Below, piece after piece: positions 20,331-63,400 of a stretch of DNA of 64,000 bases; positions within the stretch are counted from its first letter, which is position 1, and every line of letters starts with the position of its first letter. The translations under genes were made by a program, and so were the position numbers. Source of the stretch: Escherichia coli (GTDB taxonomy: Bacteria; Pseudomonadota; Gammaproteobacteria; Enterobacterales; Enterobacteriaceae); NCBI RefSeq assembly GCF_044324875.1, contig NZ_CP172185.1; one strand, given 5' to 3'. The notes under the pieces are model-generated. The model did not search any database. It had not been told where the DNA came from and worked only from the letters and a program-made list of their open reading frames with translations.

Positions 20331-20620
20331 GGTTCTCTCCCTAAAAATCTGTCTGGCAGGGTAGCGATTTGTGCGTATTGTCACGATTGAGATTTTTTAA
20401 GGTGAGAGGAAATTGATAACTTGTAGTTATGTGAAATCGCTATTTTCTGTAGCGTAGATGCATTCTTCTGACTTCTTGTCTGAGAAAATGCATAAGAAAA
20501 AATAGGTTAAAATTGAGGGGTGGAAAAGAAAGGTGCAATGTTTAGCCATTGTGTTCACCGCACCTGGACTTTGGCTTACGCATCGGGTATCTCAATCAAC
20601 AAAAGAGTTTTTAGTTTCTG

Positions 20621-21445
20621 CTATTTCTTCTCTGTAATTTTTACACTGTTTTCCAACTGCTTGATGCTGACCTGCGGGGTCGGCAACTCCTCAGGCATGG
20701 TTCCGCCAAGTTCCTGAATGGTTTGCCTCACCTTGCTACCCACGTCAAAGTGTGTGGTATTAGCTTGCTGTTTTGAATTCACGCCATCCCGCTTGAGTTT
20801 TTCTTCTGTTTGGGTAGCTCGAAAGAGATTAGCCGCCAGTTCTGTTGAACCCATATGATCCAGGATCTTCTGACTCTTTTTCAGCCCCTTCCGCTGATGG
20901 ATGGCTTTCTGATCTAATCCACCATACAGCCCCCGGTAACCATGATTCTGAAATATGGCGAAATCGATAGCTGTCGCTACCCCAGCTTGCTGCGCTGCCT
21001 CAACTAATTGTTTGTTATGTTCTTTCAACTCATTTCTCAGAAAAAGACGCTTTTCGTCTTCACGAAGTTGCCTGAAAGCTTCATCGTCAGCCAGCTCCTG
21101 TCGTCGGGTCTGGATAGCAAAATAAGTTTGCCCTGCCGCAATAACCGGTTTCGCAGGGTCGCCGTTTTGTACTACCAGGTAACAGGCATAGCGGGAGAGT
21201 ACGATGTCTTTTAATGCTCTTTTGGCATTTGAGCCAATTTTGACCATATCGAGGATCTCCTCGAAATGGTCATCAATTGTGTGACCACTATTCAGACAAG
21301 CTTCTTTGGCGCGCGTTAATACAGGTATAAAGTGACGATACTCTGAATAACCCAGTAGTTTCCCAAGTTGTCTTGCTGACCATTGTTCTGCTCCGTTTGC
21401 ATTAATCAGCTTTATCTCTTCAAAAGGTTGATGATGTTCGTTCAT
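20621..21445 (-). CDS. dinD: DNA damage-inducible protein D
   Basis: ORF track 20621-21457; start at MNEHHQPFEEIK; LexA box found 46 nt upstream. Confidence 0.8.
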   Translation of the reverse strand: MNEHHQPFEEIKLINANGAEQWSARQLGKLLGYSEYRHFIPVLTRAKEACLNSGHTIDDHFEEILDMVKIGSNAKRALKDIVLSRYACYLVVQNGDPAKPVIAAGQTYFAIQTRRQELADDEAFRQLREDEKRLFLRNELKEHNKQLVEAAQQAGVATAIDFAIFQNHGYRGLYGGLDQKAIHQRKGLKKSQKILDHMGSTELAANLFRATQTEEKLKRDGVNSKQQANTTHFDVGSKVRQTIQELGGTMPEELPTPQVSIKQLENSVKITEKK

Positions 21446-21490
21446 TGCCCACTCCATGTGATATCGATTGCAAGGAAAGTAAGTCTACAA

Positions 21491-21506
21491 CTGTGTTTAT
21501 ATACAG
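21491..21506. promoter_or_regulatory. LexA (SOS) box upstream of dinD
   Basis: CTGTGTTTATATACAG matches CTGT-N8-ACAG consensus, 46-61 nt upstream of dinD start. Confidence 0.6.
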
Positions 21507-21665
21507 TTGTGAGTATCTCACGTTCTCACTGCGCTGGGCAAAAAAACATCGCAAAATCTGGAGCAGGCACGCAAAACAGAATTGAATGTTGCGGGGAAGA
21601 AAAATGCCGCTCTGTTTTAGTGGCGGCATTTGTGAAGGCGGAAAAGTAAGAATTGGCGTTACGAG

Positions 21666-22529
21666 TTACTCGATATTCTGGATCTGCTCGCGCATCTGCT
21701 CAATCAACACTTTCAGCTCAATCGCGGAGTTTGTCACTTCGGCATTGATAGACTTCGACGCAAGAGTGTTCGACTCGCGGTTGAATTCCTGCATCATAAA
21801 GTCCAGACGACGACCAACGGCTTCTTTTTTCTTCAGAATGTTGTAGGTCTCTTTGACATGCGCTTCTAGGCGGTCCAGTTCTTCGGCAACGTCAATTCGT
21901 TGTGCCAGCAGAACCAACTCCTGCTCCAGACGGTTGTTTTCCAACTGAACCTGAGCATCTTCCAGCTTCGCGACCAGACGCTCACGCTGCCATTGCAGGA
22001 TTTCCGGCATATGGGCGCGGACTTTGACCACTTCGGCGGTGACGCCTTCCAGACGCTGCTCGATCAATGCTTTCAGCGCCTGACCTTCGGTTTCGCGCGC
22101 GACGATAAAGTCGTCCAGCGTACCATCCAACGCCGCGAGAATTTCAGCGGCAATCGCGTCGAGATCCTGCTCCTGGGCTGCCATCACGCCCGGCCAGCGT
22201 AGAATATCAACCGGGTTGATTTCCCCTTCGTCACTCTGCATTTTTACCCAGTTCGCGGCAGTTACCAGCTGTTTAGCCAGTTTTTCGTTGAGGATCAGCT
22301 CACCTTGTGCGCTAACATCTGGTTCATAGCGCAGGGTACATTCCACTTTACCGCGCGTCAGGCGAGAACGAATACGCTCGCGAACGACAGGTTCAAGGCT
22401 ACGGAACTGCTCCGGCAGACGAAAGTAAGTTTCCAGATAACGCTGGTTTACCGAGCGCATTTCCCAGGTTGCGCTCCCCCATTCACCCTTGATTTCACGC
22501 CGGGCGTAGGCGGTCATACTGCGGATCAT
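21666..22529 (-). CDS. yicC: YicC-family stress-induced protein
   Basis: 287-aa ORF recognised as YicC. Confidence 0.85.
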   Translation of the reverse strand: MIRSMTAYARREIKGEWGSATWEMRSVNQRYLETYFRLPEQFRSLEPVVRERIRSRLTRGKVECTLRYEPDVSAQGELILNEKLAKQLVTAANWVKMQSDEGEINPVDILRWPGVMAAQEQDLDAIAAEILAALDGTLDDFIVARETEGQALKALIEQRLEGVTAEVVKVRAHMPEILQWQRERLVAKLEDAQVQLENNRLEQELVLLAQRIDVAEELDRLEAHVKETYNILKKKEAVGRRLDFMMQEFNRESNTLASKSINAEVTNSAIELKVLIEQMREQIQNIE

Positions 22530-22655
22530 AGACGTTCCTGTTTATAAAAGGAGAGGTGGAAGGATTATAGCCATCGATGCCTTGTCAGGATAGGAATAAC
22601 CGCCGGAAGTCCGTATAATGCGCAGCCACATTTGTTTCAAGCCGGAGATTTCAAT

Positions 22656-23372
22656 ATGCGTCCAGCAGGCCGTAGCAATAATCAGGTGCGTCCCGTTACC
22701 CTGACTCGTAACTATACAAAACATGCAGAAGGCTCGGTGCTGGTCGAATTTGGCGATACCAAAGTATTGTGTACCGCCTCTATTGAAGAAGGCGTGCCGC
22801 GCTTCCTGAAAGGTCTGGGCCAGGGCTGGATCACCGCAGAGTACGGCATGCTGCCACGTTCTACCCACACCCGTAACGCGCGTGAAGCGGCGAAAGGTAA
22901 GCAGGGTGGACGCACCATGGAAATCCAGCGTCTGATCGCCCGTGCTCTTCGTGCGGCAGTAGATTTGAAAGCGCTGGGTGAGTTCACTATTACGCTGGAC
23001 TGCGACGTGCTTCAGGCTGATGGTGGCACGCGTACCGCTTCGATTACGGGTGCCTGCGTGGCGCTGGCAGATGCGCTACAGAAGCTGGTGGAAAACGGCA
23101 AGCTGAAAACCAACCCGATGAAAGGGATGGTAGCCGCAGTTTCTGTCGGGATTGTGAACGGCGAAGCGGTTTGCGATCTGGAATACGTTGAAGACTCTGC
23201 CGCTGAAACGGACATGAACGTGGTGATGACTGAAGACGGGCGCATCATTGAAGTGCAGGGGACGGCAGAAGGCGAGCCGTTCACCCATGAAGAGCTTCTC
23301 ACCTTGTTGGCGCTGGCCCGAGGGGGAATCGAATCCATTGTAGCGACGCAGAAGGCGGCGCTGGCAAACTGA
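22656..23372 (+). CDS. rph: ribonuclease PH (intact)
   Basis: ORF track 22632-23372; start at ATG 22656 ([14 protein letters not shown]) giving 238 aa with complete C-terminus. Confidence 0.85.
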
Positions 23373-23377
23373 TTTTT

Positions 23378-23406
23378 AAGGCGACTGATGAGTCGCCTTT
23401 TTTTTG
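23378..23406 (+). terminator. rph-pyrE intercistronic attenuator/terminator hairpin
   Basis: AAGGCGACT-GATG-AGTCGCCTT stem-loop followed by run of 8 T, just after rph stop and 32 nt before pyrE ATG. Confidence 0.65.
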
Positions 23407-23437
23407 TCTGTAGAAAAGTAAGATGAGGAGCGAAGGC

Positions 23438-24079
23438 ATGAAACCATATCAGCGCCAGTTTATTGAATTTGCGCTTAGCAAGCAGGTGTTAAAGTTTGGC
23501 GAGTTTACGCTGAAATCCGGGCGCAAAAGCCCCTATTTCTTCAACGCCGGGCTGTTTAATACCGGGCGCGATCTGGCACTGTTAGGCCGTTTTTACGCTG
23601 AAGCATTGGTGGATTCCGGCATTGAGTTCGATCTGCTGTTTGGCCCTGCTTACAAAGGGATCCCGATTGCGACCACTACCGCCGTGGCGCTGGCGGAGCA
23701 TCATGACCTTGACCTGCCGTACTGCTTTAACCGCAAAGAGGCAAAATACCACGGTGAAGGCGGCAATCTGGTTGGTAGCGCGTTACAAGGACGCGTAATG
23801 CTGGTAGATGATGTGATCACCGCCGGAACGGCGATCCGCGAGTCGATGGAAATTATTCAGGCCAATGGCGCGACGCTTGCTGGCGTATTGATTTCGCTCG
23901 ATCGTCAGGAACGGGGGCGCGGCGAGATTTCGGCAATTCAGGAAGTTGAGCGTGATTACAACTGCAAAGTGATCTCTATCATCACCCTGAAAGACCTGAT
24001 TGCTTACCTGGAAGAGAAGCCGGAAATGGCGAAACATCTGGCGGCGGTTAAGGCCTATCGCGAAGAGTTCGGCGTTTAA
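23438..24079 (+). CDS. pyrE: orotate phosphoribosyltransferase
   Basis: ORF track 23423-24079; start at [11 protein letters not shown] giving 213 aa. Confidence 0.9.
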
Positions 24080-24086
24080 AGAAACT

Positions 24087-24110
24087 CGCCGGATGAAAAG
24101 TCATCCGGCG
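24087..24110. terminator. palindromic hairpin between convergent pyrE and slmA (REP-like, bidirectional terminator candidate)
   Basis: CGCCGGATGA-AAAG-TCATCCGGCG perfect 10-bp stem. Confidence 0.45.
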
Positions 24111-24115
24111 TCATA

Positions 24116-24712
24116 TTACTGCAACTGTGCGGCAATTAGCGGCCAGCGGGCGTCAAAATCATCCGTCGGGCGGTATTTAAACTCGCTGCGGACAAAGCGT
24201 GACAGCATACCTTCACAGAAGGCCAGGATCTGGCTTGCCAGCAGGGTTTCATCGGTGGTGTAACCTTCACCCTCACGCATTCTCTTTTCGCGCAATACCT
24301 GACGCAACTGCGCTTCAATACGCTCGAACAGCTGGTTGATGCGCCCTTGCAGGCGATCCTGTTCAAACATTAGTGCATGACCAGTGAGGATGCGAGTCAG
24401 GCCAGGATTACGCTCACCAAAACCGAGAAGCAGCAACACAATCAGACGCAGGCGCGCTGTGGTGTCCTTCTCATCTTTCAGAATCAGATTGATGCGAGTA
24501 ATCAGGCTATCTTCGATAAACTCAATCAGGCTATCGAACATGCGGGTCTTACTGGGGAAGTGGCGATACAGTGCCGCTTCGGAAACGCCGACAGAGGCGG
24601 CCAGTTTTGCCGTCGTGATACGTTGGCTTCCATCGCTGGATTCCAGCATCAGCGCCAGAGACTGAAGTATTTCCTCGCGACGGTTCCTTTTCGCAGTTTG
24701 TTTTTCTGCCAT
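24116..24712 (-). CDS. slmA: nucleoid occlusion factor SlmA (TetR family)
   Basis: ORF track 24116-24754; start at [16 protein letters not shown] giving 198 aa. Confidence 0.85.
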
Positions 24713-24818
24713 GTTACAAAATACCCCTGAAAATAAGCACTTGCCAGGCGGCACCCACGCTATGACCGCAAACGAAATGTTTGCGGCTATGTTATGACGT
24801 TATTCGGATGCGTATGTG

Positions 24819-25274
24819 TTACTGACGACCAGAGTGACCAAAGCCGCCTTCACCGCGGTCGGTGGCGTCGAAATCTTCCACCAGATTAAATTCAGCCTGT
24901 ACTACCGGAACAAAAATCATCTGGGCGATGCGTTCACCAGGTTGAATGGTGAAGCTGTCCTGACCACGGTTCCACACGGAAATCATTAACTGGCCCTGAT
25001 AGTCGGAATCGATCAATCCTACCAGGTTACCAAGCACGATACCGTGCTTATGTCCCAATCCGGAGCGCGGCAGCATCATTGCCGCCAGTGAAGGATCGGC
25101 AATATGAATCGCCAGCCCGGTCGGAACCAGCGTAGTGTCACCCGGAGCCAGTTCTACGGCGTCGTCGAGACAGGCACGCAGGTCAAGTCCGGCAGAGCCA
25201 GAGGTGGCATAAGTCGGGAGCGGAAATTCCTTCCCAACGCGCGGGTCCAGAATCTTAACGTCGATTTTTTTCAT
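24819..25274 (-). CDS. dut: dUTP diphosphatase
   Basis: ORF track 24819-25277 (two tandem ATG); [14 protein letters not shown]. Confidence 0.9.
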
Positions 25275-26475
25275 CATAACGGGTCACGATCTCGTCGAGT
25301 AATAATTGGCCAAGGAGCTCTTTGCGCTCAAGCGGTAAGACTTTATCTCCGTCCTGCCAGAAAAGGTGTAATGCGTTGTTGTCGCTGTTAAATCCTTGAG
25401 TTGGCTGGGAAACATCGTTCGCGCAGATCAGATCAAGGTTTTTACGGATACGTTTTTGCCGGGCGTATTCTTCCACATTATTTGTTTCGGCGGCAAATCC
25501 AACGACGTAGGGTCGATGGTCTTTTAGTGCGGCAACGCCTGCGACGATATCGGGGTTTTTAACCATTTTTATTGTTAATTCATCACCCTGCGTGGCCTGC
25601 TTTTTGATTTTTTCTGGGGCCACGGTAGCTGCGCGATAATCCGCCACGGCGGCGCAACCGATAAAAATATTTTGCTGCTGTACAGAAGCATTCACGGCGG
25701 CTTCCATTTCCAGCGCGGTCATCACATCAACACGTTTAACAAACGGTGGCGTCGGTAGTGAAACTGGACCTGATACCAGCGTGACGTTCGCGCCACGACG
25801 GGCAGCAGCGGCGGCGATAGCAAAACCCATCTTGCCGGAGCTGTGATTAGAGATATAACGCACCGGATCGAGCGGTTCACGCGTCGGGCCGGCGGTAATC
25901 ATAATGTTCAGATGTTTCAGGTCGTTGACGGGCGAAAAATGCGCTACTGCCATATCCACAATGGTTAACGGATCGAGCATTCGCCCAGGACCGATATCAC
26001 CACAAGCCTGACTGCCACTGTCTGGCCCCCAGATGAGCAAACCACGGGAAGCAAGCACCTCTAAATTATGCTGCGTGGCAGCGGCACGGTACATCTGCTG
26101 GTTCATGGCGGGGAGCACGGCTACAGGCGCAGGTGTAGCCAGACAAATCGTCGATACCAGGTCATTCGCCATTCCGGCAGCAACACGGGCAATCAAATCT
26201 GCCGTGGCAGGGGCGAGAATCACTAAATCAGCCCATTTACCCAGCTCAATATGGCCCATAGCGGCTTCGGCTGCCGGGTCCAGCAAACTGTCGGAAACGG
26301 GATAACCAGAAACCGCCTGCAAGCTAAGTGGGGTGATAAAGGCTTTTGCCGCTTCGGTCATGGCTACGCGGACGTCGGCCCCGCGATCGCGCAAACGACG
26401 CACCAGTTCAGGGGTTTTATAGGCAGCAATACCGCCGCTGACGCCGAGAACGATTTTTTTACCGGCCAGGCTCAT
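25255..26475 (-). CDS. coaBC: bifunctional phosphopantothenoylcysteine decarboxylase / phosphopantothenate-cysteine ligase
   Basis: ORF track 25255-26547; start at [20 protein letters not shown] giving 406 aa; 3' end overlaps dut start by 20 nt. Confidence 0.9.
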
Positions 26476-26640
26476 GATGATTTTTCCTGTTTGGTGACAC
26501 CAGAAGTTGGCGATTTTATCACAATACTTTTGTTGTCGTGCCTTCACCTGAGAATCACTTTGCGAGGCGCTTTCCAGGATTGAAAACTGGCCGTCGATTT
26601 AACGGAACGGCTATGACAGGATGCGAGCACCACAAAGGAG

Positions 26641-27315
26641 GTGAAGGTGAAAAACAATTCACAGCTGTTGATGCCGCGCGAAAAAATGCTGAAGTTTGGT
26701 ATTAGCGCCTTAACGGATGTCGAGCTGCTGGCGCTATTTCTGCGTACCGGAACGCGCGGTAAAGATGTATTAACCCTGGCAAAAGAGATGCTGGAGAATT
26801 TCGGCTCTCTTTATGGCTTGTTAACCTCTGAATATGAACAATTTAGTGGCGTTCATGGAATTGGCGTGGCGAAATTTGCCCAGTTAAAGGGGATTGCTGA
26901 ACTGGCGCGGCGTTACTACAACGTGCGGATGCGTGAAGAAAGCCCTTTACTCAGCCCGGAGATGACGAGGGAATTTTTACAAAGCCAGCTCACGGGTGAG
27001 GAGCGGGAGATCTTTATGGTGATCTTTCTCGACTCCCAACACCGGGTTATAACGCATAGCCGCCTTTTTTCCGGCACGCTAAACCATGTTGAAGTCCATC
27101 CTCGGGAAATTATCCGCGAAGCGATAAAAATAAATGCCTCGGCGCTGATCCTTGCACATAATCACCCTTCGGGTTGTGCTGAACCCAGTAAAGCGGATAA
27201 ACTCATTACTGAACGGATAATAAAGAGTTGTCAGTTCATGGATTTACGCGTGCTCGACCATATCGTGATTGGGCGTGGAGAGTATGTTTCTTTTGCCGAA
27301 CGCGGCTGGATTTAA
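26641..27315 (+). CDS. yicR: UPF0758/RadC-like JAB-domain protein YicR
   Basis: 224-aa ORF (GTG start in track) with C-terminal HNHPSG JAMM-like motif; exact start uncertain. Confidence 0.8.
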
Positions 27316-54493: not shown

Positions 54494-54575
54494 CGTCCTG
54501 TGATTGTGCCGGATGCGATGTAATTGAACTGCACCCCAAATGTTGGACATAATCTGACATCTGAAGGTGCAGTTT

Positions 54576-55097
54576 ATGAAACATTCATTTGAAGTAAAAC
54601 TTGCCGCTGTAAATCACTACCTGGCCGGTCATGCAGGCATCATTTCTACGGCAAAACTCTTTCAACTTTCTCACACCAGCCTCTCACACTGGATTAATCT
54701 TTTTCTTCTTCACGGTCCTCGGGCACTGGATTGCAGACACAAGCGTAGCTATTCTCCTGAAGATAAACTTTGCGTGGTTCTTTATGCTCTCGGGCATTCT
54801 GAGTCTCTACCCCGGGTAGCTGCCCGGTTTAACATTCCCAGCCACAACACGGTTAAAAACTGGATAAAAGGCTACCGCAAATCTGGTAATGAGGCCTTTA
54901 TCAGGCGCTGGAAGGAGAAAAGCATGACCCGTTCTGATGATACCCATGAAAACGAGGCAAACATGACGCCGGAAGAGATGAAGAATGAGCTGCGTTATCT
55001 TCGCGCAGAAAATGCATATCTGAAAGCCATGCAGGAGCATCTCCTGGAAAAAAAGCGCCAGGAGCTGGAGAAAAAACGAAAGTCATCCGGAGCCTGA
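54576..55097 (+). CDS. IS3-family transposase OrfA (HTH/leucine-zipper part)
   Basis: ORF track 54567-55097 (GTG); ATG at 54576 with AAGGTG RBS; product MKHSFEVKLAAVNHY... Confidence 0.8.
   Translation: MKHSFEVKLAAVNHYLAGHAGIISTAKLFQLSHTSLSHWINLFLLHGPRALDCRHKRSYSPEDKLCVVLYALGHSESLPRVAARFNIPSHNTVKNWIKGYRKSGNEAFIRRWKEKSMTRSDDTHENEANMTPEEMKNELRYLRAENAYLKAMQEHLLEKKRQELEKKRKSSGA
55049..55055 (+). other. programmed -1 ribosomal frameshift slippery heptamer A_AAA_AAG (OrfA to OrfB)
   Basis: AAAAAAG lies in the orfA zero frame within the 54950-55097 overlap with the orfB frame. Confidence 0.6.
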
Positions 55098-55201
55098 GGT
55101 GCGGACACTGCCAGTCTGACCTGTTAAAGGCTGCAGGGCTGGCCAGAAGCACGCTGTACTACCAGCTGTCACTGCAGAAGGCTAAGGACAAGTATGCTGA
55201 T

Positions 55202-55956
<755 letters not shown>

Positions 55957-55980
55957 AATCATCTATCCGGCATACAGTAA

Positions 55981-60441: not shown

Positions 60442-63400
60442 TTACCACTGAATACCGGCACCGAGTGCGGCGGAGTATTCACCCTGGCTATTGGTACTAC
60501 CTTGTAATTTGTAGACCCAACGACCATTGGCGCTCACCATCGACACACCTAAAGCAACAGCCGATTCACCATTGTAAGTACCGCCACCAATAGAGGCCAT
60601 GCTGGCACCTGGAGTGTAAGCCTGCGGCAGACCGGTCATTGCCATTGCAGAAGCGATACCACCGCTCAACTTGCTTTCGGTTTTGGACAGTTTGTTATCC
60701 ATCTCAACCATCCGCTGATCGGTGTATTGCTTCGTTTCCTGCACGCTTTGCTTCAACTGCGCATAGTTCACTGCGTCGTTGTTGTTGACGCCAGCAGAGA
60801 CGTTGCTGATGCGAGTCGTACCGCCATTACCACCACCGAGAGTGATGTTGCTGTAGTCTATAGAACCATCAGCTTTGGTGTCGTAACGAACGCCGCCTGC
60901 CTCAGAAGACTTCAGCTGCGAAACGTTAACCGCATCGGTGGCATTAACACCTGCAGCAACGTTGGTGATACGACGCTGGTTGGTAGAAGAACCCACAGAG
61001 ATGGTGTTTTCTTCGTTGGCCACGGAACCGGTACCCAGCGCGACGCTGTTGTCAGCGGCAGCAATGGAACCAGAACCAATTGCAACACTGTCTTTACCCT
61101 GCGCGTTGGCATCTACGCCATCGGTGTTGGTCTTGAAGTATTTGGTGCTACCGGTGGTTACGATATCGCCAATGCCGTTTTCGATATTGGTAACGCGAGT
61201 ATCCAGATTCGTCACCTGATTGTTCAGGTTAGTAATGCTCTGGGTATTCTGGGAAACCTGCGCGTCCGTTACTTTCAACTGACCCACGTTAACCGCATCG
61301 GTATCAGCCGAACCAGCCGCGACGTTGGTGATCTGACGTTGACCGTCTTCACTGCCGACAGAGAACTCACCCACAGAGTTCTGCGGTGCGTCCATGTTGT
61401 AGGCGGCGTAGCCAGTTTGAGCACCACGAGTCGTCTGTGAGCCATTACCCATAGCAATGCTGTTTGCATGGTTTGCACGCGCGTTGCTACCGATAGCAAT
61501 GCCATTAAGTGCATTCGCGTCCACGTAGGCACCATAACCGATACCAATACCCGCATTACCATTAACGATAGTTTTCGCGCCCATTGCTAGCGAGTCTTCA
61601 CCTACTGCCAGTGAATCTTCTTCCGTTGAGTTGGCGTGGAAGTATTTGGTCGGCGTGGTAGCGACTGCACCAATGGCATTTTGCAACTGGCGAACCGTAA
61701 CGGCGTCATGGGCTTCGGAACCATCGGCTACGTTGATGATTTGACGATATTTACCGTCATCACCAATAGACAACGCACCAAGTAGTTCGCCATCCGTGGT
61801 GTCATAACCAATCACAACACCTTCTTCCGACACGCTGGTGTCACGAGAACCTTTAACTATTACACGGCTGGAAACGGAACTGCTACCCAGGGCGATACCC
61901 GTATCAACGGAGCTGCTGCTACCTTGACCAATGGCTACGCTGCTTTCGCCTGAGGCGACAGCGTTATAACCCACAGCCGTAGCGCCAATACCTGAAGCGC
62001 TGGCATCGTTGAACGCTAAGCCGTTGTCGTTGGTACGTACATAGTTAATGTCCGCACCGTTATCTTCGATGTAGGTTTCGCTGGTGTTACCGGCAAGCTG
62101 ATTGATGATTTCGCTGTTCTGCTGGATCAGCATATTGGTGTTAAACAGCTGAGAACCGTTGATGGCGTCAGTGCTGCCTTCGCCAATGTTACCATCAGCA
62201 ACATTTGTGATGATGCTGGCCTTGCCGTCATGGCTGGCGTTGTAGGCACCTGCGCCGTCATTGGCTGTTGCATCCCACAGCAGAGCGTTATCGTCGAGCG
62301 CATCCAGGGCGTCACCGACGTTGTTGTACTCGGCATTTGCAATGGTGTAACTCGGCGCAGTGATAGTGCCATCAGCGTTGACTTCTGCGTCACCACCCAG
62401 CGCATCAGCGATGTACTTGTTGGTGGTATACAGTTGTGAACCGTTAATGGCATCGCTGCTGGTGGAGGAAATTGCACCGTTAGCGACGTTAGTGATTACA
62501 CTGGCTGTTTTATCTTTTCCGTGAGCGGCGCTAAATGCACCATTACCATCATTGGCTGTGGCATCCCACAGCAGGGCGTCATCCAGCGTGGTATCGATCG
62601 CTTCCAGCGCGTCACCGACGTTGCTGTAACTGCCGCCAGCGATGGCATAAGTCGGTGCGGTGATTGTGCCGTCAGCATTGACTTCTGCGTCACCACCCAG
62701 AGTATCGGCAATGTACTTGCTGGTGTCATAGAGCTGTGAGCCGTTAATAGCGTCGCTGCTGGTAGAGGAAATTGCACCGTCTGCAACATTAGTAATGATG
62801 CTGGCCGTGTTATCTTTTCCGCGACCGGCGCTAAACGCACCGTCACCGCCCTTGGCGGTCGCATCCCAGAGTAGGGCGTCACCCAGTGATGTGCTAAATG
62901 ACGTGTTAATGGCAGCCAGAGCATCACCGACGTTATTGTAGTCAGTACCACCAATAGTGTAGGTTGGCCCGGTTAATACACCCGCATCACTGATATCAGC
63001 ACCACCGCCAAGGTATGACGTAAATGAATCAGCTAAGCCATAAAGTTGTGAGCCATTAATGGCGTCAGTGCTATCAGAGGATACCGTGCCTGCCAGTAAG
63101 TTGGTGATTTTGCTGTCAGTACCGTTGGTGCCGTGTTTGGCACTGAATGCACCCGCCGTAGCGTTCCACAGCAGGGAATCGTCACCGAGACTGTCAACAG
63201 CGTCAGTCAGGTTGGTGATGTTGGTGGTGTTCGTGGCGATATTGGTGGTGTTGGTTGCCACGGCATCGTTAGTGGTTTTCAGCTGAGAGCCGTTTACCGC
63301 GTCAGTGCTGCCAGCCGTCAGGTCACCGTCTTTGACGTTGGTGATTTTGCTGGTGGCTTCGGTACCGTGCGCGGCGCTGAATGCACCCGCCGTAGCGTTC

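Follow-up and report, generated by a model that had tools for sequence, protein, structure and literature searches.

The window, a stretch of 64,000 nucleotides of Escherichia coli DNA, almost certainly carries the ordinary wild-type rph-pyrE junction of a non-K-12 E. coli strain. The rph+ signature, a run of five G residues within GAGGGGGAA, is present, and upon translation the rph frame is open to ...KAALAN*. The features of the gene that are relevant to this assignment are as follows.

22644..22647, + strand: Shine-Dalgarno sequence of rph, GGAG, located 8 nt 5' of the ATG (read from the sequence).
22656..23372, + strand: intact rph coding sequence (rph+), 238 codons plus TGA with an ATG start (open reading frame list, TIGR01966 and RefSeq annotation of relatives).
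22816, + strand: A>T, CAG>CTG, yielding RNase PH Q54L, a lineage variant that differs from MG1655, AF39, Nord58 and strain 746.
23322..23326, + strand: run of five G residues, of which MG1655 (rph-1) has four (pairwise alignments with NC_000913.3).
23341..23343, + strand: TAG, which serves as the in-frame premature stop in rph-1 strains but is not read in the rph frame of the window (MG1655 allele translated).
23370..23372, + strand: TGA stop codon of rph, 5 nt 5' of the attenuator stem.

A preliminary description of this DNA had proposed an alignment with the MG1655 rph-pyrE junction as a check on its view that rph is intact. This alignment was performed globally with positions 22560-24100 of the window, using positions 3813000-3819000 of NC_000913.3 as the MG1655 reference, and the K-12 frameshift is absent. 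Across 1,541 nt, the two sequences differ by 34 substitutions and by only one indel, which is the extra G in the window. The G-run reads CCCGAGGGGGAATC in the window (five G) versus CCCGAGGGGAATC in MG1655 (four G), and from this run through the ATG of pyrE the two sequences are 100% identical, attenuator included. The frameshift described for MG1655 near the 3' end of rph is indeed a 1-bp deletion. It shifts the frame at codon 224 so that the reading ends in ...ARGESNPL*, and RefSeq annotates the 687-nt MG1655 gene as a 'truncated RNase PH' of 228 aa.

Two known allelic states of this locus can thus be compared with the window. The rph-1 allele of K-12 (MG1655, W3110 and EMG2) shares with it the locus, the gene order yicC / rph-pyrE / slmA and the sequence of the attenuator, but has one G fewer, encodes 228 aa and ends at a TAG located 34 nt before the hairpin, whereas the stop codon in the window lies 5 nt from it. 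The rph+ allele of non-K-12 strains and of K-12 rph+ revertants resembles the window in its 238 aa, its five G residues and its stop 5 nt before the hairpin, and the intercistronic attenuator and pyrE leader of the window are identical to those of K-12. Differences from the rph+ allele are confined to allelic SNPs, with Q54L as the one change that separates the protein from the common WP_001247093.1.

In E. coli the intact allele is the norm, and rph-1 is a peculiarity of a laboratory lineage: of 5,354 complete E. coli genomes, only 167 perfectly match a 70-mer of MG1655 that covers the four-G run. Perfect matches include MG1655 and J53, which both derive from K-12. Within a spread sample of 40 rows, all 38 imperfect matches to the 70-mer span 71 nt and therefore carry the extra base. 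About 97% of complete E. coli genomes have five G residues at this site. Of the 5,426 complete RefSeq genomes of this species, 5,424 carry rph-pyrE once, on the chromosome. The view of rph-1 as a K-12 laboratory peculiarity agrees with published accounts (PMC9997739, PMC5933015, PMC2784333). The preliminary description had also taken the intact allele as a mark of a non-MG1655 strain. That the strain is not MG1655 is upheld by the 34 substitutions and the indel, but the intact allele itself carries hardly any information on strain identity, as almost all E. coli have it.

The claim that rph is intact and encodes 238 aa is borne out by the open reading frame list, by the match to TIGR01966 and by the translation. 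The listed open reading frame spans 22632-23372, which is the rph frame counted from an upstream TTG, and the RefSeq annotation of rph in the three closest genomes (AF39, Nord58 and strain 746) corresponds to positions equivalent to 22656-23372. The originally described span, 22656-23406, extends beyond the gene: the rph open reading frame ends at 23372, and 23406 is the first base past the T-run of the attenuator.

Against the NCBIfam equivalog profile TIGR01966, the protein scores 378.6 bits (cut-off 141.5), and its residues 2-236 correspond to profile positions 1-235 of 236. The protein can be aligned end to end with the solved structures 1R6L (Pseudomonas aeruginosa) and 1OYP (Bacillus subtilis), and this alignment reveals that the C-terminal helix lost by K-12 is present in the RNase PH of the window. 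A GGTRTAS stretch is identical in the alignment with these structures. Two stretches, of 12 and 11 residues, are identical to 1OYP, and the second of these reads GGRTLEIQRLI in 1R6L, with one substitution. The rph product is a full-length RNase PH, for which phosphorolytic 3'-5' exoribonuclease activity is predicted. A sigma-70 scan revealed no convincing promoter for rph. By eye, a TATAAT is visible upstream of the gene at 22614-22619, with no -35 element scored.

The region between rph and pyrE carries an intrinsic terminator, composed of a hairpin and a T-run, and the upstream open reading frame stops just before the hairpin. Its features, and the Shine-Dalgarno sequence of the downstream gene, are listed here.

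23378..23399, + strand: pyrE attenuator hairpin of 9 bp, AAGGCGACT / loop GATG / AGTCGCCTT, identical to that of MG1655 (terminator scan and RNA fold).
23400..23405, + strand: T-run of the attenuator, TTTTTT, which becomes 8 consecutive T residues with two from the stem (terminator scan).
23425..23430, + strand: Shine-Dalgarno sequence of pyrE, GAGGAG (read from the sequence).

A TTTTT spacer (23373-23377) provides the 5 nt between the TGA of rph and the first base of the stem, in keeping with the initial claim that rph ends within a few nucleotides of the attenuator hairpin. When the segment 23340-23440 was folded as RNA, this hairpin was the dominant element. The only match in an Rfam scan of 22400-24200 was RyhB at 23360-23405, over the attenuator hairpin. 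Its 24.5 bits (E = 0.097) fall short of the gathering score of 55, and this sub-threshold candidate was rejected, chance resemblance to a terminator stem-loop being its most likely origin.

Expression of pyrE is known to require the coupling of translation at the end of rph with transcription across the attenuator (PMC2784333, citing Bonekamp 1984 and Jensen 1993). When the stop codon is moved farther from the loop, which is what rph-1 does, pyrE expression falls and partial pyrimidine starvation follows (PMC2784333), and mutations that return the stop toward the loop have been selected repeatedly in MG1655 (PMC2784333, PMC5933015). The statement in the preliminary description that the rph frameshift lowers pyrE expression thus has a footing in the literature, where the link is made in PMC9997739, PMC2784333 and PMC5933015.

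In the established mechanism (Bonekamp 1984 and Jensen 1993, via PMC2784333), the 5' arm of the hairpin is masked by a ribosome that follows RNA polymerase closely while it translates the last part of rph, and termination is thereby suppressed. When low UTP slows the polymerase, more read-through into pyrE results. The rph-1 deletion halts ribosomes about 30 nt earlier, causing uncoupling and lower pyrE expression. The stop codon in the window is 5 nt from the stem, and therefore the footprint of a terminating ribosome would cover the 5' arm. Normal coupling and attenuation can reasonably be inferred for this junction, given an attenuator identical to that of K-12 and a stop codon at the wild-type position. 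Read-through that depends on UTP is known for K-12 (Bonekamp 1984 and Jensen 1993, via PMC2784333), and from the sequence identity with K-12 we infer that read-through in the strain of the window would likewise respond to UTP.

A wild-type junction is no guarantee of normal orotate phosphoribosyltransferase (OPRTase) output, because the PyrE protein of this strain carries a private D104Y substitution in its catalytic loop. Furthermore, with Q54L in RNase PH and D104Y in PyrE, 'normal' output of the two enzymes is presumptive. The features of this part of the locus are given below.

23438..24079, + strand: pyrE coding sequence, orotate phosphoribosyltransferase of 213 aa (TIGR00336, 236.6 bits versus a cut-off of 106.8).
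23747, + strand: G>T, GAC>TAC, yielding PyrE D104Y, a strain-private change that adjoins the catalytic Lys103 (alignments, 61-mer search and protein look-up).
24087..24110, no strand assigned: terminator-like GC-rich hairpin between the convergent genes pyrE and slmA (terminator scan, scored on the - strand).

The 213-aa enzyme closely resembles the OPRTase of E. coli / S. typhimurium (PDB 1ORO, 6TAK and 1LH0), and is identical to 1ORO at 211 of 213 residues. The two differences are D104Y, which is strain-private, and E199K, which AF39 shares. The latter change (24032, codon 199) also distinguishes the window from K-12, Nord58 and strain 746, and OPRTases vary greatly at this position.

A less likely rival reading is that the junction is wild type, yet D104Y lowers OPRTase activity, so that the strain would experience an rph-1-like pyrimidine limitation or carry a lesion of the fluoroorotate-resistance type. 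The rarity of the change speaks for this reading. A 61-mer that covers the D104Y site has no perfect match among the 5,426 complete E. coli genomes, the lineage-mate SRR25551183 retains Asp104, and the exact D104Y protein is confined to records of this strain (WP_395762549.1 / XJR45535.1, encoded on a 5.75-Mb chromosome, and Logan assemblies). Its location is also suggestive, as residue 104 lies beside Lys103 in a loop, residues 99-109, that is described as 'highly conserved' and that shuts over the adjacent subunit's active site; modification of Lys103 decreases kcat by 150- to 300-fold (PMC10087573). Among 150 diverse OPRTase representatives, residues R99, K100, K103, H105, G106 and G109 are nearly invariant, and E101 is retained in 144 of 150, E107 in 135 of 150 and G108 in 135 of 150. 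None of the 150 has an aromatic residue at position 104.

Set against these points is the tolerance of the position itself. Of the core positions in the catalytic loop, residue 104 is the least conserved, with D in 98 of the 150 representatives and otherwise T (16), A (13), N (8), S (4), Q (4), E (3), K (2), P (1) or H (1). In the OPRTase of Mycobacterium tuberculosis, the corresponding residue is Ala (PMC5430920). This pattern of variability suggests that the side chain of residue 104 may face the solvent. In the PyrE protein of the window, R99, K100, K103, H105, G106, E107 and G109 are all kept within loop 99-109, and only residue 104 is changed. Moreover, 5 sites in 20.7 kb separate SRR25551183 from the window, and one private SNP among about this number is unremarkable. 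A significant loss of OPRTase function through D104Y is unlikely in our judgment, and the reading in which D104Y lowers OPRTase activity behind a wild-type junction is improbable to a similar degree.

The second coding change, Q54L in RNase PH, has a different distribution. Its 61-mer likewise has a perfect match in none of the 5,426 complete E. coli genomes, but the exact protein occurs in 289 blocks of a public collection, and Q54L is for this reason considered a natural lineage allele. Position 54 varies in the structure alignment, with Q in Pseudomonas but G in Bacillus, and tRNA 3'-end phosphorolysis by the Q54L enzyme is accordingly predicted to be normal. One carrier of Q54L, GCA_012437475.1, has only about 98% identity in the flanks, and the allele therefore exists on more than one background.

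The best local match to the window, AF39 (NZ_OZ547136.1), differs from it at only two positions in 20760-24935, which are the Q54L and D104Y sites (22816 and 23747), and both differences are nonsynonymous transversions. We considered whether these represent artificial edits or selection on the operon. This view was rejected: both proteins exist in public data, Q54L is naturally widespread, and D104Y is among the roughly 5 SNPs that set the window apart from a lineage-mate over 20.7 kb. Similarity to AF39 is mosaic, with 1-5% divergence in the flanks and up to 53 SNPs per kb, and over the 24 kb from 12000 to 36000 of the window, the identity of complete RefSeq E. coli genomes does not exceed 98.8%. 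The sequence of the window suggests that it may come from a recombinant and poorly represented lineage.

That the open rph frame is instead a sequencing or assembly miscount in a strain that is really rph-1-like is hardly credible, and this candidate was rejected: although the difference resides in a G homopolymer, a type of site prone to miscounts in long-read assemblies, five G residues are the species norm, an independent read-based Logan assembly (SRR31072984) contains a 6,642-nt locus that is an exact substring of the window (20438-27079), the lineage-mate SRR25551183 has an identical G-run, and the flanking SNPs point to a non-K-12 background. The Logan assembly SRR31072984 was traced through the exact PyrE protein of the window. 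The locus is best regarded as a wild-type junction.

Two further observations concern regions of the window remote from rph-pyrE. An IS3-family element of 1.4 kb (54525-55957) is located between cysE and trmL, and is absent at that site in AF39. Its two open reading frames, of 176 and 240 aa, overlap, and copies annotated as 'IS3-like element IS1397 family transposase' match it with 99.9% identity. Near the end of the window, 63100-64000 yields overlapping BLAST matches with 83-96% identity inside a gene that is annotated as 'YadA-like family protein' in AF39. These matches represent tandem-like repeats inside an adhesin gene, the rest of which lies beyond the window end.

The state of rph-pyrE described here is already known: the operon is well studied, and the window shows its textbook wild-type form. 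Since E. coli has an intact rph gene by default, with the K-12 frameshift as the exception, the significance of the finding is very small. The rph check is of use only as housekeeping: it excludes a K-12 laboratory strain as the source of the window, and it indicates that a full-length RNase PH followed by a canonical pyrE attenuator is what annotation pipelines ought to assign to this locus. The only item of follow-up value is PyrE D104Y, though it resides at a residue-tolerant position. If this substitution does partly disable OPRTase, then a natural isolate would be pyrimidine-limited, orotate-excreting or fluoroorotate-resistant despite a wild-type attenuator, and the rph-1 phenotype would be mimicked via the enzyme rather than via attenuation.
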